In this document: in pieces, positions 1-35,081 of the stretch
Layout: every line of letters starts with the position of its first letter
How positions within the stretch are numbered: position 1 is the first letter of the stretch
Source: Nanobdellota archaeon
GTDB lineage: Archaea; Nanobdellota; Nanobdellia; Pacearchaeales; GW2011-AR1
Length of the DNA: 35,081 nucleotides
Reading direction: 5' to 3'
Assembly (NCBI GenBank): GCA_030704765.1
Contig: JAUYDD010000164.1
Coordinates: 1-35,081, forward strand
Program-made: the position numbers and the translations under genes
Notes under the pieces: generated by a model
Told to the model about the DNA's origin: nothing
The model's input: only the letters and a program-made list of their open reading frames with translations
Databases searched by the model: none

Positions 1-62
1 AAATTTCTGAGCGCACCCAAAAAACTTCTGAAAGTTTTTTAGTGTGCTCCAAAATGCCTTCT
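1..62. repeat. Terminal direct repeat, left copy (identical to 35020..35081)
   Basis: Compared base by base: nt 1-62 (aaatttctgagcgcaccc...ccaaaatgccttct) equal nt 35020-35081. The identity is truncated only by the window ends. Confidence 0.95.
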
Positions 63-106
63 CTTTCTATCCATTAAAATAGATAGGTATGAGAAGAGCA
101 TTTTGG
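9..106 (+). repeat. GC-rich structured intergenic element, copy E2 (clamp stem + GTGTGCTC core + nested hairpin)
   Basis: GAGCGCAC 9-16 pairs with GTGTGCTC 42-49 (one G-U), enclosing AAAAAACTT 19-27 / AAGTTTTTT 32-40 (loop CTGA). Core TTTTTTAGTGTGCTCCAAAATGC 35-57 resembles the cores at 9924, 27193 and 34912. CCAAAATGC 49-57 pairs with GCATTTTGG 98-106, CTTCTC 58-63 with GAGAAG 91-96, and CTATC 67-71 with GATAG 82-86. Confidence 0.55.
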
Positions 107-180
107 ACATCTTAAAAGATGAAGTTTATTTTCCGACATAAAAAAAGTTTAGATATTTATTATATTCAAAAGAAGATAAT

Positions 181-188
181 TTTAAATA
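181..188 (+). promoter_or_regulatory. TATA-like box (TTTAAATA) about 25 nt upstream of ATG 210
   Basis: AT-rich octamer centred about 25 nt before the start codon, with no SD-like purine run in between. The spacing fits an archaeal leaderless or short-leader promoter. Weak in an AT-rich background. Confidence 0.35.
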
Positions 189-209
189 GGATATAAAATA
201 TAGCTTAAA

Positions 210-1289
210 ATGACAAGAAAGTTATGTGTATTTTCGTTTAGTTATGCACCAAACAAAAAAGCTATGCTTGATTATTTAGAAAAAATATTTCCAAGAGAAG
301 TTGAAATGTTTCTTTTCACTACAAAAGAGTATGCTAAAGATTTTGAAAAATGTGATTATAAAAAAATTAAAGTATTAGAAAATAAATCAAACAGATTAAC
401 GAGTTTTTTTTATTTACGTAAATTTTGTAAAGAAAATTCTATTGATAGAATAATCAACATAGGTACCTTGCCTTATGAAGCTTTTCCAATGATATTTTCT
501 AGCATTTTTACAAAAACTGAAACTTTGGTCTTTCATCTTGGAAATCCTATTGAATGCCTTAAGGTAGGTAATATAAAAAACCGTATTTATGCTATATTTG
601 AAGCTTTTTTTGATTTCACATTATCATTATTTCCTAAAAAAATACTTTTGTGTACTAAAGAACTTACTAATGATTCTAAAAAAATATTGTTTTTTTCTAA
701 AAATAAGATTTTTTATCTAGCTCCAACAATACCAACCTCTTTTTTTAAACCCTTAAACAAACAAAAAACAAGAAAGAAACTGGGTTTTAAAACTAAAGAC
801 AAGATAATAATATTTGCTGGAAGAGTGCATTATCTCAAAGGTTCTGATTTTTTAATTGATGCTATAAAAAATAATCCAGATAAAAAATTTATTGTCATAG
901 GAAAAATAATAGATAAAAAATTTCTTAAAGAAAAATTTGAAAATATTATTCATATTGAATCTTTATCCCATGAAGAACTTGTGAAATATTATAATATTTC
1001 TGATCTTTGTTTATTTCCAAGCAGATTAGAGGGATTAGCTTTGGTTCCCCGAGAAGCTATGTCCTGTAGTACTCCTGCAATAGTCTTAGATAATAAAAGC
1101 TTTGAATCTATAGAAAAAACAATAAAAGTTCCAGCGGTCTCAAAAGAGATAAATAGAGCTATTGATAGTTTTTTTAACTTATCAAAAAAACAGATAAATC
1201 TGATCTCAAAAGATTCAAGAGACTTCATTATAAAAGAATATGATGATTTAGTATGGAAAGATTTATATGTTGATTATATCTTAAACTAA
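210..1289 (+). CDS. Glycosyltransferase, GT4-like (GT-B fold)
   Basis: 359-aa ORF with ATG start. C-terminal donor-binding signature IIIFAGRVHYLKG ... FPSRLEGLALVPREAMSCSTPAIV is typical of Glycos_transf_1/GT4 enzymes. Confidence 0.7.
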   Translation: MTRKLCVFSFSYAPNKKAMLDYLEKIFPREVEMFLFTTKEYAKDFEKCDYKKIKVLENKSNRLTSFFYLRKFCKENSIDRIINIGTLPYEAFPMIFSSIFTKTETLVFHLGNPIECLKVGNIKNRIYAIFEAFFDFTLSLFPKKILLCTKELTNDSKKILFFSKNKIFYLAPTIPTSFFKPLNKQKTRKKLGFKTKDKIIIFAGRVHYLKGSDFLIDAIKNNPDKKFIVIGKIIDKKFLKEKFENIIHIESLSHEELVKYYNISDLCLFPSRLEGLALVPREAMSCSTPAIVLDNKSFESIEKTIKVPAVSKEINRAIDSFFNLSKKQINLISKDSRDFIIKEYDDLVWKDLYVDYILN

Positions 1290-1364
1290 ACAATGCATTT
1301 TATTGACAGGATTTATAAACAAAAAAGATTAGGATAAAAAGATGAATAAAAAATTAGTCTTTGT

Positions 1365-2012
1365 TTATTTATTTATTTTATGATGTTTTGCAAAAATCAT
1401 CATAGTATATTTTAAATGTTTTCCAAGAATATTGCATAAAATATCTTGTACTAATCTTTTAAAAGTATCTATTTTATGGAAATTAACAAAATTATATTTT
1501 TCTATTACAAAACCATGCCTATTCAGAAGTGTCTTAATTACTGTTGGAGAAAAAAATATAGTATGTTCAGAATTCACTGAAAGATCATTATTAAGTAATC
1601 TAATAATACCCCCTATTTTATAATTGAGACAAAAGATATTCGGAGTAGATATAATAAGATAACCTTCTTTTTTTAAATGCTCTTTTGCTCTATCAAGAAA
1701 AAGACCGGGATTACTCAAATGCTCTATTACATCTCCTGCAAAAATAACATCGAATCTCTTTTTATTAAACTTAAAATCCTCTGCACTCATAAAGTGCACG
1801 TCATAACCTCTTTTTTTTAGTTCTTTTATTCCCTCTTTATCTATATCTATGCCTGTAACTGATTTTGCATATTTTTTTAAAAATCCATAAATCCATATAT
1901 TCTCAGGATTATCTATAATAGTAAAATCAGTGAAACATCCTATATCTAAAACATCTTTATCTACAATATACTCATAGATTTCTCTTGATCTATCATCATT
2001 AATTTTTTCCAT
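1365..2012 (-). CDS. Class I SAM-dependent methyltransferase
   Basis: 215 aa. Motif I DVLDIGC, acidic loop VTGIDID, DVIFAGDVIEHLSNP and LKKEGYLIISTPN match the Methyltransf_11/23-type layout. Overlaps the upstream GT4 stop by 14 nt, consistent with operon coupling. Confidence 0.7.
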   Translation of the reverse strand: MEKINDDRSREIYEYIVDKDVLDIGCFTDFTIIDNPENIWIYGFLKKYAKSVTGIDIDKEGIKELKKRGYDVHFMSAEDFKFNKKRFDVIFAGDVIEHLSNPGLFLDRAKEHLKKEGYLIISTPNIFCLNYKIGGIIRLLNNDLSVNSEHTIFFSPTVIKTLLNRHGFVIEKYNFVNFHKIDTFKRLVQDILCNILGKHLKYTMMIFAKHHKINK

Positions 2013-3177
2013 TTTGATAGTCTTTAACAGTATTTTTGATTATCCTATTCCACTTATATATATTTGCGTATTTTCTTATATCCTTTTTCCATGTTAAAAC
2101 CTCTTTTACACTATTAATAATATCTTCTGTATTCTTTTGCCGGATTATTGCCCCATTTATATTATTTTCCACCATTAGTGGAATTCCTCCAATGTTTGTC
2201 ACAACAACAGGAAGGTTCCTTGCAAAAGCTTCCATCACTGTTACTGGAGCTCCTTCTTTAGATGAAGGCAAAACAAGACAATCAGCTGAACTTAAATAAA
2301 GCAATTTTTTTGCCTTAAAAACCCCTCCTAAAAAATAGACATTAGATTGAGCTTTTTCTTTTGAATAATTCTCTAACGATTCTCTTTCATTTCCATAACC
2401 TAAAATATATAAGTCATGTTCTTTTAGATTCTCCATAGCAGCTATAAGATATCTTACACCTTTTACTTCACTTATCCTTCCAATATAAAGAATTATTTTT
2501 TTATCCAATGGAATTTTCAATTTTTTTCTTGCAGAATCTTTTTTTATTTTTTTAAAATATATGTCTTCTATACCCATTGTCTGAAATATTGATTTTGAAT
2601 CAGGTGCTACAGACCTTAGATAATCCAGTTCTTCATTTGAAAGAGCATAAAAAACTTTTATATTCTTTAATATAATATTTTCCCATAACTGAGCTAAAAT
2701 AAAAAATAGAAAGAAAAATCTTTTCTTTTTTGATTCTTTCAGATGTTTAAATGGAGAGCTTCCTCCATGATGTTGAGCAATAATTCTAATGTTTTTAAAA
2801 AAACTAGCAATCCATAATCCATGAAGATTATGATATTCATGCAAATGAATAACTAGGCCATAATCCTCTTTTTTACTTTTTTTTATTTCTTTTCTTAATT
2901 CTTTTAACATGGATAAGGAAAAGTCAAGCGCATATATAGGTGAAAATGTTGTTGGAAAAAACCTCAGTAAAATCCTATTCTTGGTTATTTCTTCATATTT
3001 TTTATTTAATTTTTCAGGAGCCCAACATTCTACTTCAATTTTTGGATAGTATTTTTTTAATTGTACTGCTGTCTTAAAATACCAGTCATTCAATACAATA
3101 TCAATTAAACTATCTTTTTCATTTGCAAAATATGAATGAGAAGCATGTGCAATATGAATGACTTTTAATTTATTCAT
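1999..3177 (-). CDS. Glycosyltransferase, GT4-like (GT-B fold)
   Basis: 392 aa. ILYIGRISEVKGVRYLI ... LVLPSSKEGAPVTVMEAFARNLPVVVTNIGGIP is the classic GT4 C-terminal motif. Confidence 0.75.
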   Translation of the reverse strand: MNKLKVIHIAHASHSYFANEKDSLIDIVLNDWYFKTAVQLKKYYPKIEVECWAPEKLNKKYEEITKNRILLRFFPTTFSPIYALDFSLSMLKELRKEIKKSKKEDYGLVIHLHEYHNLHGLWIASFFKNIRIIAQHHGGSSPFKHLKESKKKRFFFLFFILAQLWENIILKNIKVFYALSNEELDYLRSVAPDSKSIFQTMGIEDIYFKKIKKDSARKKLKIPLDKKIILYIGRISEVKGVRYLIAAMENLKEHDLYILGYGNERESLENYSKEKAQSNVYFLGGVFKAKKLLYLSSADCLVLPSSKEGAPVTVMEAFARNLPVVVTNIGGIPLMVENNINGAIIRQKNTEDIINSVKEVLTWKKDIRKYANIYKWNRIIKNTVKDYQNGKN

Positions 3178-3200
3178 TTGACAGAAGAGAAGATAGGGGT

Positions 3201-3210
3201 TTATAAAATT
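3201..3210 (-). promoter_or_regulatory. TATA-like box (minus strand AATTTTATAA) 24-33 nt upstream of ATG 3177
   Basis: Lies in the 31-nt gap between the epimerase stop (3209-3211) and the GT4 start. It could be an internal promoter, or simply AT-rich spacer in a co-transcribed pair. Confidence 0.3.
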
Positions 3211-4246
3211 AATTGGTCTTTATAAATAGGTTTTCAGTTCTTTTAATCCAGTCTATAAGACTTTTTACACCTTCTCTTGGAAGAACTATAGGTTCCCATT
3301 TCAGATATTTTTTTGCTTTAGATATATCTGAGACATAATATCTTAAATCACCAAATCTATCGGGGCCATGTATAATATTTGATTTTTTTCCTGTTATTTC
3401 TTCTATTAATCTAATACATTCAATTAAAGAAATCATTGTTTTTTCTCCACCACCTATGTTATAGATTCCTGGAACCTGATTATTATAAAATGCGTCAAAT
3501 GCTAAAGCTACATCTGTTGCATAAAGTATATCCCTTAATTGTTTTCCTGTACCAAATATAGTCAAGGGTAATCCTAAGTAGTTTCTTATAGCAAAATTAG
3601 CTACCCATCCGTGATCTTCTCCACCAAACTGGTTTGGACCATAAATGCCTGTTAATCTAAAACTTGCTGCCTTTAATTTATATGTATCCATATAACATCT
3701 AACATAATTTTCAGCTGAGGATTTAGATGCATGCAAGGGAGTCACTACACCTTGTAATAATGCTTCTTGTTCATCTATTGTTACTGGACTTCTTACATAC
3801 CGAGTCTCTATTTCTTTTAATTCTGAATTTATTTTATCAGGACCATAACAATGAATAGAATTGCAGGAAACAATAGGAATATCGTATTTTCGTGCTGCTT
3901 CCAATACATTGAATGTTCCAATAACATTGGTTGTAAAATCTAATTCAGGGTCTTCAGAACTCAAGGTCATTGTAGGTTGTGCTGCAGTATGACTTATAAA
4001 ATCGCATCCTTTAGCATAATTCAATAGTGTTACTTTATCCCTTATATCTTCAACTACAACTTTTACACCCATAGCTTCTAATAATTTTTGATTATAGTAA
4101 CGTGATTCTGGTTTCATATAAGAATTTTTAGAAAACTCATATTTAGTAAGATTATCATAAGCTATGACTTCCCAACCTTTTTTCTTATACATCTCGCAAA
4201 TATGGCTTCCTAAAAAGCCACATCCGCCTGTAATTAAAACTTTCAT
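3209..4246 (-). CDS. NAD-dependent sugar epimerase/dehydratase (extended SDR), CDP-paratose/tyvelose 2-epimerase-like
   Basis: 345 aa. N-terminal Rossmann motif MKVLITGGCGFLGSH. FGGEDHGWVANFAIRNYLGLPLTIFGTGKQLRD resembles the CDP-tyvelose epimerase family block. The expected YxxxK reads LHASK (see finding). Confidence 0.75.
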   Translation of the reverse strand: MKVLITGGCGFLGSHICEMYKKKGWEVIAYDNLTKYEFSKNSYMKPESRYYNQKLLEAMGVKVVVEDIRDKVTLLNYAKGCDFISHTAAQPTMTLSSEDPELDFTTNVIGTFNVLEAARKYDIPIVSCNSIHCYGPDKINSELKEIETRYVRSPVTIDEQEALLQGVVTPLHASKSSAENYVRCYMDTYKLKAASFRLTGIYGPNQFGGEDHGWVANFAIRNYLGLPLTIFGTGKQLRDILYATDVALAFDAFYNNQVPGIYNIGGGEKTMISLIECIRLIEEITGKKSNIIHGPDRFGDLRYYVSDISKAKKYLKWEPIVLPREGVKSLIDWIKRTENLFIKTN

Positions 4247-4278
4247 TTTTTTGTTTATTTTTGTTTAAAAATGGAAGA

Positions 4279-4301
4279 TCAGAAAATTTTTAATTTTCTG
4301 A
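4279..4301. repeat. Hairpin TCAGAAAATT/AATTTTCTGA followed by GC, related to hairpin 35004..35029
   Basis: 10-nt arms at 4279-4288 and 4292-4301. Same TCAGAAA-TT ... AATTTCTGAGC theme as at 35004-35031 (= 2-12). Lies in the divergent intergenic region between the epimerase and the radical-SAM gene. Confidence 0.5.
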
Positions 4302-4391
4302 GCTTTTGGCATATATAGGTAATATTTAAATAACTTAAAAAGATTTCTATAAAATTAGAACTGCTTATTGATTTCGGATTTTATTAATCAT

Positions 4392-4400
4392 ATTTATAAA
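4392..4400 (+). promoter_or_regulatory. TATA-like box (ATTTATAAA) about 27 nt upstream of ATG 4423
   Basis: Position and sequence fit an archaeal TATA box. No SD-like element precedes the ATG. Confidence 0.35.
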
Positions 4401-4422
4401 CCCATTAGTTTTTTATGGGATT

Positions 4423-5553
4423 ATGCCAAAAATGCCTTTATCCCATAAATTGAAGCTGTTTTCAAATTTTATATATGCAGGAAGATTTAGAGAAATCTAT
4501 AATATGATTTGGGTATATCCTTTATGGTGGAACAGAAAAACTGCAGCTTTTTTATTGAATAATTTTTTTCCTAAACTTGGAATAGACCTATTTCCACCGT
4601 TTCTTGAAATAGAACCAACTACAGTTTGCAATTTCAGGTGTGTCTGCTGTGAACATACTTATTGGAAAGAACCTTCTATAAACATGAGTTTTGAAAAATT
4701 TAAAAAAATTATTGATGATTTTAAGAGACCAAAATGGCTTGGATTAACTGGAATTGGTTCCTCATATCTGAATAAAGATTATCATAAGATGCTGAAATAT
4801 GCTAAATCTAAAGGAACAATAATAGAAGTATTTGATCATTTTGCGCATTTTAAGAATGATGATGAAATAAAAGAATTAATAGAAATAGGCCCTGATTTCC
4901 AGTTTGTTTCTATGTATGGCTCTAGTAAAATATCTTTTGAAAAAGTATGTGTTGGAAGTGATTTTGAAAAAATCATAAAAAATCTCAAGATATTTGTAAA
5001 GTTAAAAAAACAAATGAAAAAAAGATTTCCTATATTGAATTTCCATTATATTGTGACTAGTGAATCAAAGGATGAAATACTTGATTTTTTAGACTTAGTT
5101 CATTCTCTTAATACAGAAGTTGGAGAGATACTTGTGACTCCAATGCTCCATGGATATAAAGAAGCTAAAAAATACGAAGTTAGGATTGATCCTGATTATG
5201 TTAAAAAAGTAGAAGAAAGAGCAAAAAAATATAAAATAGCGGTAACAGTCAATATGTCAGCAAAACAAGAAGCAGAAGGCCTTATTTGCAAACCTCCAAT
5301 CAGGAATTGCAAAGAGTATATCATGCCTTTTATTTTTGTCACAGGTGATGTAACACCTTGTTGCGGTCAAAATGAAGCTAATGCAAGAGATTGGCAGAAA
5401 AACACTTCTCTTGGAAATGTGTTTGAAAGGCCATTTAAAGATATTTGGTATTCTCAAAAATATGTAAATATGAGAAAAATTATAAGAAAGAATAAAGTTC
5501 CAAAAGAATGTCTTTTATGTCCTGCTTATGATATATCTAAATTACATATATAG
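4423..5553 (+). CDS. Radical SAM enzyme with SPASM/twitch-like C-terminal Cys-rich domain
   Basis: 376 aa. LEIEPTTVCNFRCVCCEH contains CxxxCxxC (C-NFR-C-VC-C). C-terminal Cys cluster: CKPPIRNC ... GDVTPCCGQ ... ECLLCPAY. Confidence 0.75.
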   Translation: MPKMPLSHKLKLFSNFIYAGRFREIYNMIWVYPLWWNRKTAAFLLNNFFPKLGIDLFPPFLEIEPTTVCNFRCVCCEHTYWKEPSINMSFEKFKKIIDDFKRPKWLGLTGIGSSYLNKDYHKMLKYAKSKGTIIEVFDHFAHFKNDDEIKELIEIGPDFQFVSMYGSSKISFEKVCVGSDFEKIIKNLKIFVKLKKQMKKRFPILNFHYIVTSESKDEILDFLDLVHSLNTEVGEILVTPMLHGYKEAKKYEVRIDPDYVKKVEERAKKYKIAVTVNMSAKQEAEGLICKPPIRNCKEYIMPFIFVTGDVTPCCGQNEANARDWQKNTSLGNVFERPFKDIWYSQKYVNMRKIIRKNKVPKECLLCPAYDISKLHI

Positions 5554-5601
5554 AAGATAAGAATAAGTAAAAAATATTATTATATTGTATTTATAAACAT
5601 T

Positions 5602-5976
5602 TTATTCTTTTGGAAGTTTATCTTTTTCTTTTCTTTTCTTGCTTTTTTCAAATACTTCTTCGAATTCTCCTTTTAAGTATTTAATAAAATCTTCTTTAAC
5701 GTCTTTTGAAATTATGTTTTGATTTACTAACTTATCAAGCGCTTCTTTTTTTTCTAATATCATGTTTAATTGTTTCATGTCCTGTTCATCAGCATAATTT
5801 CTATACATTTCTGTTAAACCCCATATAGTTAAAGGTATTCCTATTAACAAAAGAAGGTTTATAGAGCTAGAATTTACATCAGCTAAAGAAGAAAAATACC
5901 ATGCTGATCCAGTACATAAGAGGCCAAGAAAAGTGATTAAAAAGTCGTATTTTATATATTTTGGAATGTCAGCCAT
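5602..5976 (-). CDS. Small membrane protein (two predicted TM helices plus charged coiled C-terminal tail), function unknown
   Basis: The ORF track starts at GTG 5982. The ATG at 5976 lies 5 nt downstream of GAGG, so I prefer 5976 as the start. Hydrophobic stretches FLITFLGLLCTGSAWYF and LLLLIGIPLTIWGL, followed by a Lys/Glu-rich tail. Confidence 0.45.
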   Translation of the reverse strand: MADIPKYIKYDFLITFLGLLCTGSAWYFSSLADVNSSSINLLLLIGIPLTIWGLTEMYRNYADEQDMKQLNMILEKKEALDKLVNQNIISKDVKEDFIKYLKGEFEEVFEKSKKRKEKDKLPKE

Positions 5977-5978
5977 AT

Positions 5979-5985
5979 TCACCTC
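5979..5985 (-). promoter_or_regulatory. Shine-Dalgarno-like GAGGTGA for the internal gene starting at 5976
   Basis: Minus strand reads AGTAGAGGTGAATATG. The element overlaps the TAG stop (5985-5987) of the upstream small ORF. Confidence 0.5.
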
Positions 5986-6179
5986 TACTTAGTTAATCCT
6001 ACTATAATTGCTATAATAATTAATATCCCTCCAAAAAAACTATAAGATACACTTCCTAATGATGTCATCAATTTAATTATATTGCTCTCGATTAAATAAT
6101 TGTTGAATAGAATTAATGCTACACCTATAACTGACAGAAGAATTACCCACAAACTACGCCTTGACCTCTTTCTACCCAT
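5985..6179 (-). CDS. Small membrane protein (64 aa, two predicted TM helices), function unknown
   Basis: ATG start. Basic N-terminus MGRKRSRRS, then LWVILLSVIGVALILF and FFGGILIIIAIIVGL. Translationally coupled to the next small ORF. Confidence 0.4.
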   Translation of the reverse strand: MGRKRSRRSLWVILLSVIGVALILFNNYLIESNIIKLMTSLGSVSYSFFGGILIIIAIIVGLTK

Positions 6180-6280
6180 AAGTAAGCTATATCTTTTTAA
6201 TTTTTAAACTTACCTATTTTAACCTTATCATAATGTTGCAATGATACTATCTAATATATGGAAATTCTTGCAAAAAATAA

Positions 6281-8152: not shown

Positions 8153-8271
8153 AGCTATTTTTTAGGGTTTATTTGCTATTTAAAGTATTTATATCAATGA
8201 AAAGTTGTTTTATAAAATATATTTTAAGATATATACCAAACACTTAAAAAACATGATATTTTAAGATTTTA

Positions 8272-9819: not shown

Positions 9820-9840
9820 AATTATGTTCTTTTATCAAAA

Positions 9841-10695: not shown

Positions 10696-10715
10696 TAAAA
10701 TTACAATATAATAAA

Positions 10716-18330: not shown

Positions 18331-18331
18331 A

Positions 18332-24328: not shown

Positions 24329-24368
24329 AGATAAAATAAAGGGATTATAAACTTTCTTGTGATATAAT

Positions 24369-25151: not shown

Positions 25152-25156
25152 GGAAT

Positions 25157-27093: not shown

Positions 27094-27143
27094 CTGATTT
27101 ATAGAAAATCAGAGTTTTTAAAATTAACAGTATATAAAAATCA

Positions 27144-27263
27144 AGAAAACCATAAGTTTACCACACACTAAAGTGTGTGGTTTGTTTAGTGGTTTTCTGG
27201 ATGCTCCAAAATCGATAATCCTGTCTTATCTCCACATCATAAATGATGTGGTTATCGATTTTG
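27144..27263 (+). repeat. GC-rich structured intergenic element, copy B
   Basis: AGAAAACCA 27144-27152 pairs with TGGTTTTCT 27190-27198, enclosing CCACACAC-TAAA-GTGTGTGG at 27161-27180. Core TTTTCTGGATGCTCCAAAATCGAT at 27193-27216. CAAAATCGATAA 27207-27218 pairs perfectly with TTATCGATTTTG 27252-27263, enclosing CCACATCAT / ATGATGTGG (27232-27251) with apex ATAAAT. Confidence 0.6.
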
Positions 27264-27289
27264 CACATATAAATCAAAAAGCCTAAAAA

Positions 27290-28843
27290 TCATATTTGAT
27301 GTAAAAACTTATTCTTTATAGAGGATATTATCATCAAATCATTATTATCCAGACTTCTTGATATAAATATCAAGAGTAGATAAATTAACATGAAAAATGA
27401 AGCAAGCATAATTAAAGAAAAAAGGTTTATTTCTATAAATCGTCTTAAATAAAATATGAACAATGCTGGAAATATTGAACAAAGGGCTATTCCTATCATT
27501 TTTTTTCTTAATGGTATTATTGAAGTATATTTTTTAACTTGAAAGAACAATAAGAAAAATAAAATTATTTGAGAAAATAATGTGGTAAAAGCAGCTCCTG
27601 ACATGCCGTATATGGGTACGATTATTATATTTAATGTCAAGTTAATAACGGCTGTAATAACTGTATTAAATAAAATAGTTTTAGATTTTCCTGCCATGGA
27701 CAAGAGATTATAAAATATTACAGATAGTGAATAAATGAAAAAGCTTATCGAGAGTATTCTTAATGGAATTTCAGCTGAGATATATTCAGATCCGAAAAGT
27801 AGATTAATAAAAGCTCCTGGAAACAAGAACATTAATGCAAAAACAGGAAGATTGATAATAAACACCCATTTTTCAACTTGTTTACTTAATTCTTTGACTA
27901 AAGAAAGGTTCTTCTTTGCATATTCCTTTGTTACTATCGGCAGGAAAAGACGCATAAAAATTGTTGGAAAAAATCCTAAAAGCATTGCAATAGATACTGC
28001 AGAAGTATAAAGCCCTACTTCCAAAGTCCCTTTGAAGTATCCTATTGTCAAAGAATCAATATAAAAAAATATTGCGTCTAAAAGACCTAAAAAAACTAAA
28101 GGCCAAGAATAAGAAAAAAGATCTTTTTTTATTTTTGATTTGGATTGCTTATCTAAATCATAAGAAGAATGTTTAATGAGATATTTCTTACAATAATAAT
28201 AAGATAATAAATAAATCAATAATAATCCTAATATATAAGAAATAATAATTGAATTAGAATTAAAACCTAGATATATGAACAATAGTAGCATAAAAATCTT
28301 TATAATACTAGGGGTAATATCAAAAATAAAAGTATATTCTTTTATTTTTTCAAATCCCTGTATCACTGCTAATAAAATGTTTGATAATGCGAAAAATGGC
28401 ACTCCTATACTGAATATCCTCAAAAATATCACTAGATTAGTATCATGAAAAATATTTACTGAAATATATTCTGAGAAAATAAATAATATTATTCCAGATA
28501 ACAAAGAGAGAAAAAAGATGAATGATAAAGAAATATGGTAAAGATACTTTAATCTATCTTTATCATCTCTAGACCTAAAAATAGAGATATATCTGAGTAC
28601 ACCTTCATGAAAACCTAGAGAAGCAAATACTCCGAACCATCCTAGAATTATCAATGCTAAAGAAAAACGGCCATAAACTTCTGGACCAAAATTTCTAGCA
28701 ATAATTATACGATAAACATATGCAAACAGTTTGGATATCAATATTCCTATAAAGACTATAATCGAGGTCTTTACTATGTTTTTTAATGAATTTTCTACTA
28801 GATGTTTTTTCTTATATCTCATGATATTAAATGAAAATGCCAT
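27290..28843 (-). CDS. Oligo/polysaccharide flippase (MOP superfamily, Wzx-like)
   Basis: 517 aa with 12-14 hydrophobic segments. N-terminal SKLFAYVYRIIIARNFGPEVYGRFSLAL is typical of Polysacc_synt proteins. Met8 (nt 28822) may be the true start, because a TTTTTAAATAT element at 28848-28858 would then sit about 30 nt upstream. Confidence 0.7.
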   Translation of the reverse strand: MAFSFNIMRYKKKHLVENSLKNIVKTSIIVFIGILISKLFAYVYRIIIARNFGPEVYGRFSLALIILGWFGVFASLGFHEGVLRYISIFRSRDDKDRLKYLYHISLSFIFFLSLLSGIILFIFSEYISVNIFHDTNLVIFLRIFSIGVPFFALSNILLAVIQGFEKIKEYTFIFDITPSIIKIFMLLLFIYLGFNSNSIIISYILGLLLIYLLSYYYCKKYLIKHSSYDLDKQSKSKIKKDLFSYSWPLVFLGLLDAIFFYIDSLTIGYFKGTLEVGLYTSAVSIAMLLGFFPTIFMRLFLPIVTKEYAKKNLSLVKELSKQVEKWVFIINLPVFALMFLFPGAFINLLFGSEYISAEIPLRILSISFFIYSLSVIFYNLLSMAGKSKTILFNTVITAVINLTLNIIIVPIYGMSGAAFTTLFSQIILFFLLFFQVKKYTSIIPLRKKMIGIALCSIFPALFIFYLRRFIEINLFSLIMLASFFMLIYLLLIFISRSLDNNDLMIISSIKNKFLHQI

Positions 28844-28920
28844 AATGTTTTTAAATATGAGGGTTTTTAAGATGAAAAGCCAATAATTGAGAAAAAAGGT
28901 TATTTGCCTATAAAATGAAC

Positions 28921-28945
28921 TACCTCGCCCTAAAGGGACGAGGTA
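28921..28945. repeat. GC-rich hairpin TACCTCGCCC-TAAA-GGGACGAGGTA
   Basis: TACCTCG 28921-28927 pairs with CGAGGTA 28939-28945, and CCC with GGG, around a TAAA loop. The same C-TAAA-G apex occurs at 27168-27173 and 9861-9866. Confidence 0.5.
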
Positions 28946-29016
28946 TTACTAAATAAAAAAAATGCTAACGACATTCAACACAAAGTTAAGAAGAAAAAAA
29001 TTAAATCTAACTACGG

Positions 29017-29061
29017 AGCACGGCTCTCCTCCATCTGTTTTAAAGCAGAGGTATCCGAGCC
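29017..29061 (-). repeat. Possible degenerate inverted copy of the structured element (hairpin + GTGCTCC on the minus strand)
   Basis: GGCTC 29022-29026 pairs with GAGCC 29057-29061, enclosing CC-A-TCTG / CAGA-GG. The minus strand then reads ...GAGAGCCGTGCTCCGTAG, sharing GTGCTCC with copy E2. It ends 11 nt upstream of ATG 29072. Confidence 0.3.
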
Positions 29062-29071
29062 TATTCATGTA

Positions 29072-29623
29072 ATGAAATTTTTAAGAAAAATTGCTAGGGA
29101 GCTATTATTAAAAAAAAGGAGCCCTGCAAGATACGATCTAGAAAGAAAAATCTTTCCAAAAATTAAACAAAAAAAGATTTTGCTTGTCGGTATTGCAGAC
29201 TATATAAAGAATTATCCTGATAAATTAAAAGAAAATGAGATATGGACCTTGGATATAGACCCGAACGTAGCTAAATATGGCTCAAAAAACCACATAATTG
29301 GAGATGTGTCTGTTGTAGATAAATATTTTAGTAAAAATTTTTTGGATTATATTTTTTTATGTGGAGTTATTGGCTGCGGTTTAAACGATATAATAAAAAC
29401 AGAAAAAGCCATAAATAATTCTTATAAAATATTAAAACCTAAAGGGATTTTAGTTGTAGGGTGGGATTCTGGGAATACAAAAAAATGGGGATTTAGATTG
29501 CCGCTTATGGATAATTTAAAAATAAATAAAAAATTTAATAGAACATCAAGATTTGGATTTCCAATAGGATATAAATACGGCACAGAAGAAAAATATTATA
29601 GTTATGATTTTCTTGAAAAATGA
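29072..29623 (+). CDS. Methyltransferase-like Rossmann protein (degenerate motif I)
   Basis: 183 aa. KILLVGIADY replaces the usual hhDhGxGxG. WTLDIDPN, DYIFLCGVIGCGLND and ILKPKGILVVGW keep class I MTase spacing. ATGA overlap with the downstream GT-C gene. Confidence 0.4.
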   Translation: MKFLRKIARELLLKKRSPARYDLERKIFPKIKQKKILLVGIADYIKNYPDKLKENEIWTLDIDPNVAKYGSKNHIIGDVSVVDKYFSKNFLDYIFLCGVIGCGLNDIIKTEKAINNSYKILKPKGILVVGWDSGNTKKWGFRLPLMDNLKINKKFNRTSRFGFPIGYKYGTEEKYYSYDFLEK

Positions 29624-31281
29624 AATATAAAATACTGCTTTCGCTGATATTGGTCTTGCATCTTATATTTGTAGTTATATCCATGAACCAACCTTTTCAT
29701 GGAGATGAGATAATCTGGACTGAAGCTGCGAATAGCATCATGAAGACAGGAAAACCTGTTTTTGACTATGGAAGAAATAATCCTATGCACATGGCTCTTT
29801 TACATGTTCCGACAAACATGTATATCCTGAGTGTTTTTATTTACTTTTTAGGTTATAATGAAATCTCTGCGAGATTAGTCTGCACTATTTTCAATATATT
29901 AACAATTTTCTTGATTTATTTTATATCTTTGGAAATATTTAAAAACAATAAAAATAAAAGAAGTTATTCTATACTTGCAGTATTTCTTTATGCTCTTAAT
30001 CCTTTCACTATACAGAGTATGATGCTAGTGGATGTTGATCCTGGATTATTAAATTTTTCATTGGCTCTTTTTTTATATTTATATATTAAAGAAAAAAAGT
30101 ATTATTTTCTAATACCTTCCTTAATCTTGGTTTTTTTATCAAAAGAAGTCGGCCTTGTCCTATTATTTCCGGTTTTAATCCTATCCAATATTATCCCCCC
30201 TAATAAGAAAAAAATCCTTGAAACTTTTGTTTTATTTATTATTTCAATATTGATATTCCTTTTAATATGTTTAATATTTTCAAAAATTACGGGTCTAGAC
30301 ATATTTATGCCACTTAAAACAAATTTTCTAGGGCAAAAAGCTAATTTTTTTGATAAAGGAGAAATACTTATACATATCTGGAATTTTAAGAATTTTTTTT
30401 ACTATGCAACTCCTTATTTAATTTCCTTGTTTTTTATCTTTTCTATTGTATTTTATTATAAAGTTATAAAAAATATTAATATAATTAAACGAAAAGATGT
30501 TCATGAGATTTTTTTAATCAATTTATTTGTATTTGCTATAATAGGATTATATATGATAAAGGGAGGAAGTGCCTGGGGATTTCCAAAATATTATATCCTA
30601 GCTATGCCTTGGATTTCGATTTTTATAGCTTTTATGTTATCAAAAAGCAATATTATTGAATATATGAAAAAGAAGCTTTATACTCATAGATTCCTTTTTA
30701 TCTTATTGATAATATTTATGTTCATCTATTTCTATTCGTATATTGGGGATCCCTTGATGCCTGAAATTGATACTTCTGTAAATAATACTGGAGTTTTTTT
30801 AGCAATAACACTTATATTAAAAAGCTTTATTCTTTATGCAATAATTCCATTCGCTGTAATATATCTCTTTTTTTATTTTTCCAGATTTAATGGCAAGATG
30901 TACATGGCATTATTGTTACTGATATTTTTTTCATATGCTTATATAGATATATTGCATACAACAGTAGATTATTCTACTTATAGCAAATACGGTGATAGGG
31001 GCATTCCAGAGGTTATAAATTATGTTAAAGAAAAAGATTTGCCAATTGAGAAAATAGCAACCCATATGCATATAGGACATTATTTAGGATTATCAAGATA
31101 TTATGAAATAACATTTAGTTATGATTATCCGGATAGATTTAAAAAAGAGATAATTGATAATCCAGAAATTGAATATTTAATAATATGGAACAGGGATGTT
31201 ATAAGAATAGGTGATAATATGAAATATTTTAAATTAGAAAAACAAATAGGAAGTTATTATATATACAGAAAAATTATATAG
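29620..31281 (+). CDS. GT-C fold membrane glycosyltransferase (ArnT/PMT, GT39/83-like)
   Basis: 553 aa with more than 10 TM segments. First-loop acidic motif QPFHGDEIIWTEAANS and a soluble C-terminal domain. No WWDYG motif. Confidence 0.6.
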   Translation: MKYKILLSLILVLHLIFVVISMNQPFHGDEIIWTEAANSIMKTGKPVFDYGRNNPMHMALLHVPTNMYILSVFIYFLGYNEISARLVCTIFNILTIFLIYFISLEIFKNNKNKRSYSILAVFLYALNPFTIQSMMLVDVDPGLLNFSLALFLYLYIKEKKYYFLIPSLILVFLSKEVGLVLLFPVLILSNIIPPNKKKILETFVLFIISILIFLLICLIFSKITGLDIFMPLKTNFLGQKANFFDKGEILIHIWNFKNFFYYATPYLISLFFIFSIVFYYKVIKNINIIKRKDVHEIFLINLFVFAIIGLYMIKGGSAWGFPKYYILAMPWISIFIAFMLSKSNIIEYMKKKLYTHRFLFILLIIFMFIYFYSYIGDPLMPEIDTSVNNTGVFLAITLILKSFILYAIIPFAVIYLFFYFSRFNGKMYMALLLLIFFSYAYIDILHTTVDYSTYSKYGDRGIPEVINYVKEKDLPIEKIATHMHIGHYLGLSRYYEITFSYDYPDRFKKEIIDNPEIEYLIIWNRDVIRIGDNMKYFKLEKQIGSYYIYRKII

Positions 31282-31301
31282 TATCTTATAGGGAATAAAA
31301 T

Positions 31302-31901
31302 TTATGACCAGTCTTTTATATAGTCCATGGAAGTCATTACAGCGTCTACATCTATTCTTTCTTCATCTAAAAATTTTCTATATATCTTTATATCTTGGGG
31401 CCTTCCCCATCTTTCAGGACAGACTAAGCATAGTTTAAATCCTTCTTTTTTCAATCGGTCATATACTTCTCTTGTTAATGGAAGCTGTGTGTTTACATCT
31501 ATCCAAACCCAATCTAATAAACCTTTTTGTGCAAGAGCCATCTCAATAGGCTCTGCTTCACTAAATCTTACTGCTATTTTTTTAAATCCATCCCTTCTTG
31601 TTGCATAATAAAGAAAAGGGAATTCAACATCCAAAAGAAAATAATCTTCTATATCATATTTTTTCGCTAAACCTATCACTTGTTTTTCTATACCTGCCTC
31701 CTTTATATTGAATATTATAAAAGCATGTTTGTATTCCTTTAGATAATCCTCTAATTCATCATGATCATCTGGATTTTTTATAGAATCATGATTTAATAAT
31801 AGTCTGTCACCATATGCCCTTATATCTATTTCAACACCATATTCTTGAGGTGTTTTTTTTAGATCCTCGATTTTATTAACCCTATGCCTTATTATTAACA
31901 T
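31302..31901 (-). CDS. GDPD/PI-PLC-like TIM-barrel phosphodiesterase (short form)
   Basis: The ORF track starts at TTG 31910, and the first ATG is at 31901 (MLIIRHR...). IIRHR, GVEIDIRAYGDRLLLNHD reproduce the H-R ... E-x-D ... H-D catalytic pattern of glycerophosphodiester phosphodiesterases. GGAG lies at 31914-31917 on the minus strand. Confidence 0.5.
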   Translation of the reverse strand: MLIIRHRVNKIEDLKKTPQEYGVEIDIRAYGDRLLLNHDSIKNPDDHDELEDYLKEYKHAFIIFNIKEAGIEKQVIGLAKKYDIEDYFLLDVEFPFLYYATRRDGFKKIAVRFSEAEPIEMALAQKGLLDWVWIDVNTQLPLTREVYDRLKKEGFKLCLVCPERWGRPQDIKIYRKFLDEERIDVDAVMTSMDYIKDWS

Positions 31902-31946
31902 ACTATTCAATATCTCCTAGTAATTATAAAGGTTATCATTTATAGT

Positions 31947-32109
31947 AACTGAAATTAATTTTTAATTTCAGTTCCTAAATATAGTGAAAAACATAAATAA
32001 CTGAGCAAAAATTTATGTTTTTCCCTGGATAGTCAAGGCATAACTGCTCAATTTTCAATGTCCTTGACTATACTAAAGGAATAAATTTTTCCGAAAATTT
32101 ATTTCCTTT
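31947..32109. repeat. Array of four consecutive long hairpins
   Basis: H1: AACTGAAATTA 31947-31957 / TAATTTCAGTT 31963-31973. H2: GAAAAACATAAAT 31986-31998 / ATTTATGTTTTTC 32011-32023. H3: ATAGTCAAGG 32029-32038 / CCTTGACTAT 32062-32071. H4: AAAGGAATAAATTTT 32075-32089 / AAAATTTATTTCCTTT 32094-32109 (one bulged T). H1-H3 are perfect. Confidence 0.7.
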
Positions 32110-32117
32110 CCTATAAA

Positions 32118-32915
32118 TCAAGCTTTTTTTATTAAAACTATTCTTCTTTGAAGAGCAAAAAATCTTGGAGAAAGGAAAACCAAGACAGAATCTAAAGTGC
32201 CTATAAGTCTTAATAATGTCAAAGGCAGCTCAATGGTTTTTGCTTTTGCAATTACTCCTCCTGAAAGTGGAAATATAAAAAACTCTGAAAAAGATTTTTC
32301 AACTATATCAAAGTAAGGCACTTCTTTATTAAATTTTTCCAAATCATCGAATAAGAGATTGGGTATTGCACAATTAGCAGACCAAAGATCATCTTTATCT
32401 GTGCAAGGAATCTTTAAGCTGTAGACATCTGCATTATAAGACCATCCTTCATGTTTCATTATCCTCAATATCAATCTCATAGCAATAGAGCAATTAACTT
32501 CTTGTATTAATAAATATCCTCCTGGTTTTAGGATCCTGTTCATTTCAGTAAAAAATTTTTTTGGATATGGAGTATGATGAATCATATTACTGCAGAAAAC
32601 GACATCATAATTATTTTTTTTTAATCGGGTCTTAAGAGCATCAACTTTTTTTTCTACCCAGGGATGATCTGCAAAATCTGTAAGCAAGAGACTGCAATCC
32701 TCTCTGATAAAATCTTTTGAAACTCCTGTTCCACAACCGACTTCAAGAACCTTATCTTTCTCTTTGATATATTTGTTCATCCAAGAAAACCTTTTGTTCA
32801 AAAGATATACTAAATTTCTTGGTTTATACTTATAATAATTCTCCCTTGCTAAGACTACATCTCCTTCATGCTTCATTAAATTTTTATTATGGCGAGACTT
32901 GTATTCTCTTAACAT
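32118..32915 (-). CDS. Class I SAM-dependent methyltransferase
   Basis: 265 aa. KVLEVGCGTGV (motif I), LLLTDFAD, DVVFCSNMIHHTPYPKKFFTEMNRILKPGGYLLIQE. Confidence 0.75.
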   Translation of the reverse strand: MLREYKSRHNKNLMKHEGDVVLARENYYKYKPRNLVYLLNKRFSWMNKYIKEKDKVLEVGCGTGVSKDFIREDCSLLLTDFADHPWVEKKVDALKTRLKKNNYDVVFCSNMIHHTPYPKKFFTEMNRILKPGGYLLIQEVNCSIAMRLILRIMKHEGWSYNADVYSLKIPCTDKDDLWSANCAIPNLLFDDLEKFNKEVPYFDIVEKSFSEFFIFPLSGGVIAKAKTIELPLTLLRLIGTLDSVLVFLSPRFFALQRRIVLIKKA

Positions 32916-32916
32916 T

Positions 32917-33216
32917 TTATTTTTTTATGTCTGAATCTTGGATATATTCGAAATCATATATTAAAGCTATATGTGCTTTTTGAAGCTCTTTACCTAGATA
33001 TGCTGCATGATCAAGCAAAGATATATGGCCTTCATCAATAATCTTATACATAATCTCTTCAGGAGTCTTTCCTATTATAATCCTTATAATTTCATTATTT
33101 TTTAAACAATGGGCTACTTCTATTATTTTCTTTTCTCTATTTATTCTTATTAAGAAATAGCCTTTTGGATCAAGATTCCATTTTTGTTTGAATCCGTTTG
33201 CATCTATCTCTTCCAT
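32917..33216 (-). CDS. DUF4346-like small protein
   Basis: 99 aa. WNLDPKGYFLIRIN...IEVAHC ... GHISLLDHAAYLGKELQKAHIAL...YIQD matches my recollection of the DUF4346 pattern (LDP-GYF ... HAAYLGrEL-kAe ... Y-QD). One nt separates it from the downstream methyltransferase gene. Confidence 0.45.
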   Translation of the reverse strand: MEEIDANGFKQKWNLDPKGYFLIRINREKKIIEVAHCLKNNEIIRIIIGKTPEEIMYKIIDEGHISLLDHAAYLGKELQKAHIALIYDFEYIQDSDIKK

Positions 33217-33241
33217 GTTTATATAAATTATTCGTAATAAT

Positions 33242-33252
33242 CTTTATAAAAG
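33242..33252. promoter_or_regulatory. Near-palindromic TATA-like element CTTTATAAAAG midway between divergent ATGs 33216 (-) and 33272 (+)
   Basis: 55-nt spacer. The element is centred about 25-31 nt from each start codon. Confidence 0.35.
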
Positions 33253-33271
33253 CTTTTAGGTATTCTAGAAG

Positions 33272-34855
33272 ATGGTAGACATAATCTTATTTCAACCTAA
33301 ATGCGGGATATGGGATATAATGGGTATAAGGGTGCCTATAGGATTATTGAGTATAGCTGCAGATCCAGTAAAAAAGGGGTATGAAACAGCCCTTATAGAC
33401 CAAAGAACTAGTATAAATTGGAAAGAAGAATTAAAAAAACAAATAAACTCAGGAGCAAAACTAGTATGCTTGACTACTATGGTTGGAGAACAGATAAAAT
33501 ACATGTTAGAGGTCTCTAAATTTATCAAATCAATAAATCCTAGAATTATCACAGTTCTTGGAGGAAGCTGGGCTCAGACAGAACCTGAAATGTGCATGCA
33601 GGATAAGAATCTTGATATTGTATGTTATGGAGAAGGAGACTACATATTATCAGAATTAATGGAATATATAAACAAAAAAAGAAAGATAGAGAATATATTA
33701 GGTATTATCTATAGAGATAAAGAAGGAAATTTAAGAAAAAACAAAGAAAGGGCTTTAATAAAAGATCTAGATGACTTACCTAAGATTCCGTATAATCTTA
33801 TTGATCTTAAAGATTATACTGCAGTGGGATTTAGAGCTGGAAAGCAATCTATATCCCTAGTATTAAGTAGAGGTTGTCCATATAGATGCACTTTTTGTTC
33901 GATTGTAAAATTTTATAATAGATCTTGGAGAGGTTATTCCTTAAAAAGGGTTATGGAAGATATAAATGAATTAGATATAAAATATAATATCAAGGATTTT
34001 TATTTCAATGATGATAATATTGCAGGCAATCCAAAAAGATTTTCAGAATTTGTAAAAATGCTTGTTGACAAAAACCGAGACTATAATTGGGGTATAGCTG
34101 GAATCAGAGCTGATACTATTTTAAGTCTTGATGAAGAAACCTTGCAAAACCTTGTAAAAAGCGGGTGTAAAAATTTAGATATAGGAGCTGAATCTGGAAG
34201 CCAAAGAATCCTAGATATGGTTCATAAGGATGAAAGTTTAGAAAAAATTAGAGAAGCAAATAAAAGACTTTCTAAATATCCTTTGATTGTAAAATACACT
34301 TTTATGGGAGGCTTTCCAACAGAGACTGAAAAAGAATTCTTAGAAACATTAAGATTCAAAAGAATTCTTGAAAAAGAAAACCCTCATGCAATAGGTCTTG
34401 TTTTTTTCTATACTCCTTTTCCAAGAACAGAAATGTTCTCCACAGCTGTGGGTCATGGATTAAATCCTCCTAAAAACCTTATTGAATGGGCTGATTTTAA
34501 TTATGACACTTGGACAAAAAAACAAGCATCCTGGCTTACAAAAAGAAAAATTAAATTAATTGAAAATTCTGTTTTTATATCTTATTTTGCTAATAATAAT
34601 CTTAGCTATAAATATCCAAATCCTTTGATGAATTTCATGTTCAAAACATATTATCCTCTTGCGAAATTCAGGTATGACAATAATTTCTATTCATTAATGA
34701 TTGAAAAAAAAGCAGCAGATGTTATTACAAAATTGAATGAAAAATATGATTTATTCAACAGGATAAAGAAAAAATCAAAAAAATTTTCTGAAATCAAAAA
34801 AATCTTTCATAAGATTTTTTGGAACATTCAAAATCTTTTAGAGATTTTGAAGTAA
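33272..34855 (+). CDS. B12-binding-domain radical SAM enzyme (class B)
   Basis: 527 aa. LLSIAADPVKKGYETALID, LGGSWAQTEPE, VCYGEGDYILSELM, then LVLSRGCPYRCTFCS (CxxxCxxC). Confidence 0.8.
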   Translation: MVDIILFQPKCGIWDIMGIRVPIGLLSIAADPVKKGYETALIDQRTSINWKEELKKQINSGAKLVCLTTMVGEQIKYMLEVSKFIKSINPRIITVLGGSWAQTEPEMCMQDKNLDIVCYGEGDYILSELMEYINKKRKIENILGIIYRDKEGNLRKNKERALIKDLDDLPKIPYNLIDLKDYTAVGFRAGKQSISLVLSRGCPYRCTFCSIVKFYNRSWRGYSLKRVMEDINELDIKYNIKDFYFNDDNIAGNPKRFSEFVKMLVDKNRDYNWGIAGIRADTILSLDEETLQNLVKSGCKNLDIGAESGSQRILDMVHKDESLEKIREANKRLSKYPLIVKYTFMGGFPTETEKEFLETLRFKRILEKENPHAIGLVFFYTPFPRTEMFSTAVGHGLNPPKNLIEWADFNYDTWTKKQASWLTKRKIKLIENSVFISYFANNNLSYKYPNPLMNFMFKTYYPLAKFRYDNNFYSLMIEKKAADVITKLNEKYDLFNRIKKKSKKFSEIKKIFHKIFWNIQNLLEILK

Positions 34856-34998
34856 TCGCCTACTCCATCCTGAAGGATGGAGTTTGATCGGCGATTTTTC
34901 TGATTCGGAAATTTTTAGGATGCTCGAAAATTGAATGCAAGTAAACTACCTCATGTCAAGAACCATGGAATAAATTCCATGGCGTGTTTGGTTCTTGA
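34854..34998 (+). repeat. GC-rich structured intergenic element, copy E1
   Basis: AATCGCC 34854-34860 pairs with GGCGATT 34890-34896, and ACTCCATCC 34862-34870 with GGATGGAGT 34875-34883 (loop TGAA). Core TTTTTAGGATGCTCGAAAATTGAA at 34912-34935 is 22/24 identical to 9924-9947. TCAAGAA 34956-34962 pairs with TTCTTGA 34992-34998, enclosing CCATGG 34963-34968 / CCATGG 34977-34982 with apex AATAAATT. Confidence 0.6.
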
Positions 34999-35003
34999 GC
35001 ACG

Positions 35004-35029
35004 TCAGAAATTTTTTAATAAATTTCTGA
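35004..35029. repeat. Hairpin TCAGAAATT/AATTTCTGA spanning the start of the terminal repeat
   Basis: Arms at 35004-35012 and 35021-35029, loop TTTTAATA. The 3' arm is also nt 2-10, so at the left end of the window the hairpin is complete only if the molecule is circular. Confidence 0.6.
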
Positions 35030-35081
35030 GCGCACCCAAAAAACTTCTGAAAGTTTTTTAGTGTGCTCCAAAATGCCTTCT
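35020..35081. repeat. Terminal direct repeat, right copy (identical to 1..62)
   Basis: See left copy. 62/62 identity, read by eye. Confidence 0.95.

Follow-up and report, generated by a model that had tools for sequence, protein, structure and literature searches.

An apparently circular 35-kb archaeal contig is probably a chromosomal segment that closes on a dispersed hairpin-rich element

Introduction

When the two ends of a metagenomic contig are identical, is the molecule circular? The question is raised by contig JAUYDD010000164.1 (assembly GCA_030704765.1, Nanobdellota archaeon), whose first and last 62 nucleotides are the same. The window analyzed here is this whole contig, 35,081 bp in the NCBI record. 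A first-pass annotation, made from the sequence, read it as an autonomous 35-kb circle devoted to envelope-glycan biosynthesis and devoid of recognizable replicon genes, with the caveat that the overlap falls inside a member of a structured-repeat family. Our analysis does not support the autonomous circle: about half of the contig is collinear with chromosomes, the junction lies in a dispersed chromosomal repeat, and no independent assembly runs across the join.

We favor instead the reading that the contig is a chromosomal segment whose apparent circularity is artefactual or due to flanking repeats, to which we assign a probability of about 0.68. This preference rests on a collinear gene block, the lack of replicon functions, a chromosomal repeat landscape, the position of the junction within a repeat member, and the existence elsewhere of long identical copies of that repeat. 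The contig would be a piece of chromosome from an uncultured DPANN archaeon of Pacearchaeota/Woesearchaeota type, bearing the conserved envelope/N-glycan neighborhood of its lineage with variable glycan genes on the flanks. Each end of the contig would fall in a copy of a dispersed hairpin-rich element, the two copies being identical for 62 nt or more, and the assembly graph would cycle at this repeat, causing the contig to be written with overlapping ends.

Results

Nucleotides 1–62 match 35020–35081 exactly, and 62 nt is the maximal prefix–suffix match. As first described, closing the contig would give a circle of 35,019 bp of unique sequence. Neither the 62-mer nor sampled 15- to 40-mers had a third site on either strand of the contig, and exact matches of the junction region (34800–35081 plus 63–260) to the remainder of the contig do not exceed 15 nt. 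The 5′ copy of the overlap (1–62) consists of 14 nt upstream of a structured-element copy, C2, and the first 48 nt of that copy; the 3′ copy (35020–35081), located by exact-match search, is identical to it. No open reading frame (ORF) is cut at the ends, as had also been noted; between the end of the last gene (34855) and the start of the first (210) there are only ORFs of at most 44 aa. Closure was further said to complete a hairpin. The hairpin is real, with TCAGAAATT (35004–35012) pairing with AATTTCTGA (35021–35029), but both arms belong to the 3′ end of the window and the pairing is visible without closing the circle.

If the overlap alone suggests a circle, what do the genes suggest? We gathered loci of relatives from contigs that encode homologues of the window's 428-aa protein and from a scan of one genome per GTDB species. 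Compared with these loci, positions 9991–27093 form a conserved chromosomal block of 17 genes, defined by Pfam assignments and by collinearity with seven relatives (L012, L013, L137, L143, L145, L148 and L156). Read on the minus strand, the block begins with a family 4 glycosyltransferase (GT4, PF00953), LPG_synthase_TM, two GT2 enzymes, a B12-binding radical SAM (rSAM) enzyme, a nucleotidyltransferase-like protein, a phosphodiesterase and DUF362. It continues with a methyltransferase, PMT_2, an rSAM enzyme, a GT9/NUDIX protein, a nucleoside deoxyribosyltransferase, a winged helix-turn-helix protein and a kinase, a GT2, an aIF5A-like ORF and QueC. The order in the relatives is GT4, LPG_synthase_TM, GT2, rSAM, GT2, nucleotidyltransferase-like protein and phosphodiesterase, followed in some genomes by DUF362 and a methyltransferase (MT175), and then PMT_2, GT9/NUDIX, nucleoside deoxyribosyltransferase, GT2, the aIF5A-like mini-ORF and QueC. 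Between 15 and 17 of the block genes are collinear with the seven relatives in both order and orientation, at 40–76% protein identity.

The relatives that carry the block are metagenome-assembled genomes (MAGs) of Ca. Pacearchaeota/Woesearchaeota, in which it lies on contigs of 105–652 kb (L137, 105,433 bp; L148, 159,530; L143, 158,802; L145, 218,383; L012, 651,690 bp); the window itself is a free-standing 35-kb contig. In L012 the block occupies 318–339 kb, which is the interior of the contig. Judging from gene order and protein identity, about half of the window is an orthologous copy of a conserved chromosomal envelope-glycan neighborhood. Three kinds of gene in the block are not glycan genes: QueC, the aIF5A-like mini-ORF and the nucleoside deoxyribosyltransferase. 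Since QueC and the aIF5A-like ORF have no glycan role and yet hold their positions, the block appears to be an inherited chromosomal neighborhood rather than collected mobile cargo. Each window protein that was checked is a singleton at 90% identity, and therefore the databases contain no other near-identical copy of the block.

Where does the collinearity end? Upstream of the GT4 gene, L012 and L013 carry annotated STT3/AglB and SpoIIM genes, and four other relatives (L137, L145, L148 and L156) have size-matched genes (~820–950 aa and ~285 aa) at the same position. This adjacency was not found in the window, where a structured element, copy B, and a flippase gene stand instead. The break in collinearity, at 27094–27289, coincides with element B, and structured elements may mark points of rearrangement. 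On the other side of the block, the gene beyond QueC in L143 is an orthologue of the window gene rSAM_8272, such that collinearity there passes element A; L156 has a GT1b-like gene near QueC. Orthologues of the last gene of the window, rSAM_33272, together with DUF4346, flippase and 204–208-aa neighbors, belong to long glycan clusters on linear contigs of 13–283 kb, one of which continues into SNF2 helicase, DNA methyltransferase and Fic genes. We also considered a recurring circular element. Orthologue contigs of about the same size as the window (37.1 and 34.5 kb) proved to be linear fragments with different neighbors (SNF2 helicase, DNA methyltransferases, Fic), and the idea was rejected.

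Could the remaining genes sustain a replicon? The window contains 32 ORFs of at least 80 aa and two small ORFs, at a GC content of 27.5% with no break in composition. Nearly all encode Pfam families of glycan/envelope biosynthesis or nucleoside metabolism, in agreement with the first-pass description of the cargo. Glycosyltransferases are of types GT1, GT2, GT4 (PF00953) and GT9; membrane proteins include two PMT_2 proteins, a Wzx/MurJ-type flippase and LPG_synthase_TM; and there are five rSAM enzymes, four B12-binding and one with a SPASM domain. Sugar modification is represented by an epimerase, an NTP-transferase/GT1 fusion and several methyltransferases. The other genes encode a phosphodiesterase, DUF362, DUF4346, QueC, a nucleoside 2-deoxyribosyltransferase, a NUDIX domain and, among small products, a deoxynucleoside-kinase-like P-loop protein, an 88-aa winged-helix protein and a 64-aa ORF resembling the aIF5A N terminus.

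Searches of the window ORFs with Pfam, PHROGs and NCBIfam found no Rep, Orc1/Cdc6, MCM, primase, ParA/B or relaxase and no integrase, recombinase, transposase, capsid, portal or terminase, and the unassigned ORFs yielded no replication, partition, integration or virion protein in PHROG, NCBIfam and PDB sequence searches. Profile and structure searches of the unassigned proteins for Rep, primase and partition families gave no match either, so the reported absence of replicon, mobility and virion genes holds. A cryptic Rep was sought among the 428-aa, 192-aa, 88-aa and 202-aa proteins and the small transmembrane ORFs and was rejected by profile, structure and PDB sequence searches; PHROG matches to "terminase small subunit" are weak P-loop hits to the kinase-like protein. 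The window has no iteron-like or origin recognition box (ORB)-like array, only AT-rich low-complexity repeats, although an origin of an unconventional kind may still be present; its GC skew tracks the gene strand, with no origin/terminus pattern. It also contains no tRNA and no Rfam family at gathering or E-value thresholds, and shows no similarity to any of 72,556 plasmid and 50,697 phage (INPHARED) records.

These results bear on two alternatives. The first is that the contig is a virus or provirus with direct terminal repeats and structural genes too divergent to recognize. Beyond the terminal repeat itself, nothing in the window speaks for it. No PHROG structural or packaging family is present, nearly every ORF carries a cellular glycan or metabolic Pfam domain, no INPHARED record is similar, IMG/VR holds neither a relative of the 428-aa protein nor an exact copy of the junction 48-mer, and the block is collinear with chromosomes. 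The virus reading is effectively refuted already. The second is that a DPANN archaeon maintains an autonomous circle of 35.0 kb, an episome or mini-chromosome that would hold the only glycan-locus copy of its lineage and would be replicated by chromosomal initiators or through an origin or protein that escapes recognition. An episome has to be reconciled with the lack of any initiator, partition gene, origin-like repeat or mobility gene, and with 17 genes, some of them of non-glycan housekeeping type, that are collinear with mid-chromosome loci of many relatives. Moreover, all homologues of the block's signature protein with known context lie on linear contigs of the ordinary kind, the largest of 652 kb, with none in viral or plasmid collections. 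We know of no archaeal plasmid of such size that lacks replicon genes.

What, then, is the sequence at the junction? Related hairpin-rich elements occur in the window at 9820–9990, 27094–27289 and 34856–35081/1–112 and have a common core, TTTTTAGGATGCTCNARAAT. Metagenome contigs from many environments gave at least 120 exact matches to the core (L015–L134), where we estimate that chance would supply only a handful. Elements are about 60–190 nt long and are built of AUCAAAAAAAC, hairpin P1, GUUUUUAGGAUGCUC, hairpin P2 and GACAU. In an alignment of 22 sequences, 23 of the 42 predicted pairs are retained through changes on both sides, and no Rfam family matches the element.

A covariance model (R1), derived from unrelated metagenome copies and used to scan the window, identified four to five copies, with the full elements all on the plus strand. 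Copy A (9834–10010, plus strand; R1 match at 9834–9960, 64.4 bits, E = 3e-11) lies between rSAM_8272 and QueC, with its 3′ end over the last QueC codons. It belongs to a sub-variant with a 36-nt insert that is also found in L051, L090 and L094. Copy B (27140–27270, plus strand; 102.5 bits, E = 5e-19) marks the end of the collinearity. Copy C2, the junction copy (15–112, plus strand), is diverged, with a core that reads GTGTGCTCCAAAAT in place of GGATGCTCNAAAAT; it scored 32.2 bits (E about 1e-4) with filters off, which bears out the caveat that the overlap lies in a member of a structured-repeat family. When the join is read through, C2 forms a stack of three hairpins (–50.3 kcal/mol, z = –10.3). 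Copy C1 (34774–35003, plus strand) carries a half unit in inverse orientation and overlaps the 3′ end of the last gene. It contains the exact core TTTTTAGGATGCTCGAAAAT at 34912–34931 (fold z = –3.8); R1 matches in this region are at 34774–34890 (plus strand, 23.8 bits), 34903–35003 (plus strand, 14.8 bits) and 34951–35062 (minus strand, 25.6 bits). A further hairpin-rich region, E (31936–32114; fold z = –5.6), is possibly a degenerate relative (weak R1 matches of 10–12 bits).

Where the element is present it is dense, with three to five copies per 9–15 kb, or about one per 3–10 kb. The 137 ORFs that neighbor it fall into 112 Pfam families, among them such housekeeping functions as aminoacyl-tRNA synthetases, RadA, ribosomal protein S9, diphthamide synthase, OapB and SepF, and show no excess of transposases. 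Because it is dense, stands between ordinary archaeal housekeeping genes and has no transposase excess, the element is a dispersed intergenic element of archaeal chromosomes, and its density in the window is that usual for chromosomes. In 34 related MAG loci, the 527 kb surrounding the conserved block contain no copy of it. Four loci with element sub-variants (L051, L090, L092 and L094) have no genes in common with the window and are therefore uninformative about the usual flanks of C1 and C2.

Several features of the element recur at other loci. Inverse half units (ATGTC-stem-GAGCAC, the reverse complement of GTGCTC-stem-GACAT) stand beside full elements in the window (34955–35029) and in L036, L054, L074, L084 and L099, and give rise to nested palindromic arrangements like that of the junction copy. 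The TCAGAAAT...ATTTCTGAG hairpin is found nearly verbatim in L074 and L036. In short forms of the element, the terminal GACAU runs straight into an AUG start codon (for example in L022, L029, L044 and L060).

Can such an element produce a false circle? Near-identical copies at different sites do exist and share more than 62 nt exactly. Two contigs of one assembly (L051 and L094) have a 130-nt exact run within a 199-nt match that is mid-contig in both, with unrelated flanks on both sides, and other pairs of contigs share exact runs of 111 nt (L024/L049) and 73 nt (L032/L034). Contigs also end inside the element slightly more often than expected (15 of 71, versus 9.1; p about 0.03), a weak excess.

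An independent assembly of the same run (Logan, k = 31; SRR13727536) recovered the window as four contigs, all 100% identical to it: L001 (112–8961), L014 (9985–27184), L213 (27157–31970) and L002 (32043–34817). Its breaks fall at A, B, E and C1/C2, and it reads through D, a hairpin-rich region that is not a family member; the Logan breaks therefore follow the repeat content of the sample. L014 and L213 meet at the P1a hairpin of B (28 nt, 27157–27184), the gap at E spans 31971–32042, and L001 begins at nt 112, right after the 3′ GACATC of C2. Positions 34818–111 are unassembled in Logan, which thus neither confirms nor refutes the join. Logan also lacks ~1 kb at 8962–9984, comprising the 3′ half of rSAM_8272 and element A. 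Position 8961 is the only break away from a structured element and could reflect low coverage or k-mers shared with a paralogue.

The length of the overlap may also be informative. A clean assembler cycle leaves an overlap equal to k, for which 55, 77, 99, 127 and 141 are common metagenome settings. A value of 62 would fit the edge of a real 62-nt repeat, or two partly read copies of a longer one, rather than a common k.

It is also conceivable that the circle is real and not autonomous, being either looped out by recombination of two identical direct copies of the element (as an intermediate in excision or amplification) or the trace of a tandem duplication. Direct repeats that extend over the 5′ portion of a small structured element are reminiscent of substrates for att-type or homologous recombination, the family has identical copies dispersed elsewhere, and the start of L001 at the 3′ boundary of C2 (nt 112) could mean that this sequence has two left-hand contexts. 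However, the contig encodes no integrase or recombinase, and the Logan break at nt 112 is equally explained by k-mers common to other copies. When an att-type arrangement was examined, the 62-nt repeat was found to cover the 5′ 48 nt of C2, a single physical context was visible and no tRNA was present. We regard such a circle as quite doubtful.

How secure is the preferred reading, a chromosomal segment closed at a repeat? It would require a second identical copy of the junction member in the same genome, which we infer, and several observations weigh against it. Copies within one locus usually share at most 20 nt exactly, and an identical pair would therefore have to be a recent duplicate. 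A second 62-mer or C2-like copy was not found in the contig, and a 48-mer from the 35020–35081 copy has no exact match in three public collections (viral, JGI-metagenome and GTDB-genome). Read through the join, C2 makes a full unit of three hairpins with very high stability, as true continuity predicts, and real circles are normally recognized by just such an exact prefix–suffix overlap. Lastly, STT3/AglB adjoins the block in all relatives examined and is missing here, indicating that the genome is rearranged at element B whichever reading is correct.

Much of this would also suit the episome: a terminal overlap of 62 nt that is exact and occurs nowhere else in the contig, an element whose structure is complete when read through the join, the lack of any other copy of the junction sequence among those found, the limit of 20 nt that in-locus copies normally share, and the end of collinearity at element B without STT3, which would fit a relocated block. 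Set against these points are the gene content and the chromosomal contexts described above and the fact that no independent assembly crosses the junction, and we consider an autonomous episome improbable. One way in which a real circle might arise is by release from the chromosome through recombination between elements, after which it would carry the sole copy of the glycan neighborhood and, having no replication, partition or mobility gene, would be maintained by the host in trans; we find this doubtful. A genuine circular molecule of any form, all taken together, is unlikely but has to be kept in mind.

The segments on either side of the conserved block also encode glycan functions. Positions 210–9819 hold variable glycan genes, assigned by Pfam, that encode two GT1 enzymes, a methyltransferase, an epimerase, the SPASM rSAM enzyme, two small transmembrane proteins, the NTP-transferase/GT1 fusion and a B12-binding rSAM enzyme. 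A second glycan cluster, at 27290–34855, encodes the flippase, a methyltransferase-like protein, a PMT_2 protein, a 202-aa protein, a methyltransferase, DUF4346 and a B12-binding rSAM enzyme.

The one large ORF without an assignment (20646–21932, minus strand) encodes the 428-aa protein, which we characterized through its homologues, an AlphaFold (AF2) model and structure searches. It has 117 homologues, on contigs of up to 651,690 bp. The close ones are 53–66% identical, those at 53–64% all being from Ca. Pacearchaeota or Woesearchaeota MAGs, and distant ones occur in bacteria of the candidate phyla radiation (CPR) and in Chloroflexota. The model, built from 30 homologues, is predicted with high confidence (pLDDT 92.8, pTM 0.92), and its top structural matches are the aminoglycoside adenylyltransferases AAD(9), ANT and AadA and the MNT antitoxins. 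A viral structure library gave only weak nucleotidyltransferase matches, PDB sequence and structure searches gave no Rep or primase match, IMG/VR contains no relatives, and the family has no Pfam model. On the strength of the model, the protein is a predicted Pol-beta-type nucleotidyltransferase with a helical domain, not a Rep. Among homologue-bearing contigs of 20–50 kb, 6 of 19 (P0137, P0165, P0194, P0231, P0234 and P0238) measure 36–39 kb, near the size of the window. As many homologue contigs are 100–650 kb long, we judged this clustering to be chance and not the mark of a recurring element.

Discussion

The gene set of the window appears to function as an archaeal agl-type envelope-glycosylation locus and, by collinearity, to be a member of the Pacearchaeota/Woesearchaeota locus. 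Like archaeal agl and envelope-glycan clusters found beside aglB/STT3, it encodes a PF00953 (AglH/WecA-type) enzyme, GT2 enzymes of the dolichol-phosphate type, a Wzx/MurJ-type flippase and PMT_2, as well as a sugar epimerase, a nucleotidyltransferase and methyltransferases, and in relatives the block adjoins STT3/AglB. Unlike those clusters, the window itself has no STT3/AglB, is rich in rSAM enzymes (four B12-binding and one SPASM) and has a lineage-specific module of nucleotidyltransferase, LPG_synthase_TM and phosphodiesterase. With its new nucleotidyltransferase family, the 17-gene envelope locus should be usable as a chromosomal marker for Pacearchaeota/Woesearchaeota.

If the contig is a chromosomal segment, how does it compare with other assemblies that close by mistake? 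False circles induced by repeats in short-read metagenomes have the same exact overlap within a dispersed repeat, the same chromosomal content and independent assemblies that break at that point. They differ from our case in that the second repeat copy is unobserved here and the in-locus copies are too diverged to supply 62 identical nucleotides. Hypervariable glycan loci are known to tangle assemblies. Hypervariable surface-polysaccharide islands of abundant planktonic microbes, such as SAR11 HVR2, resemble the window in having a conserved core with flanking glycan genes that differ in content and order among relatives. They differ in that the case described in a preprint is carried by a bacterial integrative element with its own backbone (bioRxiv 10.64898/2026.05.20.726742).

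Archaeal plasmids and chromids share with the window their size range and an apparent circularity. The window differs from them in having no Orc1/Cdc6, RepA, rolling-circle-replication Rep, primase-polymerase, partition genes or origin repeats, and in being collinear with main chromosomes. The window lacks all hallmarks of plasmids, viruses and integrative elements that could be tested, leaving aside apparent circularity, for which a terminal overlap inside a repeat member is ambiguous. If the circle were nonetheless real, it would be, to our knowledge, the first extrachromosomal element without replicon genes reported for DPANN, and core cell-surface genes would reside on a separable molecule, which would bear on surface variation in episymbionts.

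The junction element invites comparison with repetitive extragenic palindromic sequences and bacterial interspersed mosaic elements (REP/BIME), miniature inverted-repeat transposable elements (MITEs) and palindromes derived from IS200/IS605. Like these, it measures about 100–190 nt, has multiple hairpins, is dense, lies between genes or over gene ends and has near-identical copies at unrelated sites. It differs from them in its strictly conserved 20-nt core, present in many environments and more like that of a functional RNA, and in having no association with transposases. An element that is widespread, strongly supported by covariation and new to Rfam may matter more than the circle. It fragments short-read assemblies and may also circularize them, and in genomes where such a hairpin-rich element is dense, terminal overlap alone is unfit for calling plasmids or viruses.

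What might the 428-aa protein do in this locus? One homologue (P0214) is fused to LPG_synthase_TM, and genes of the ~420-aa family always have an rSAM or LPG_synthase_TM gene on one side and a type I phosphodiesterase gene on the other. Judged by this fusion and by its neighbors, the protein is a putative modifier of a lipid-linked or sugar substrate. The gene position and the LPG_synthase_TM fusion together suggest a putative and previously undescribed pathway of lipid or glycan head-group modification in Pacearchaeota/Woesearchaeota.

The aIF5A-like ORF (10746–10940, plus strand) encodes 64 aa that match NCBIfam IF-5A (E = 4e-7) and Pfam IF5A-like_N (E = 2e-4), both under the curated cut-offs. 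The resemblance to aIF5A is limited to its N-terminal SH3-like domain, in which GKQGKRK replaces the GKHG of the hypusine site, and the ORF is kept at the same place beside QueC in L137, L148 and L156 at 57–64% identity. It is likely to be a genuine stand-alone mini-protein and not a pseudogene.

Finally, we note a set of nucleoside-metabolism genes inside the glycan locus (9991–14608), which encode QueC, the nucleoside 2-deoxyribosyltransferase, the deoxynucleoside-kinase-like P-loop protein and the NUDIX domain, the last joined in one protein with a GT9 heptosyltransferase-like domain. Relatives keep QueC and the deoxyribosyltransferase there; the kinase and the 88-aa winged helix-turn-helix protein are found in this contig alone.

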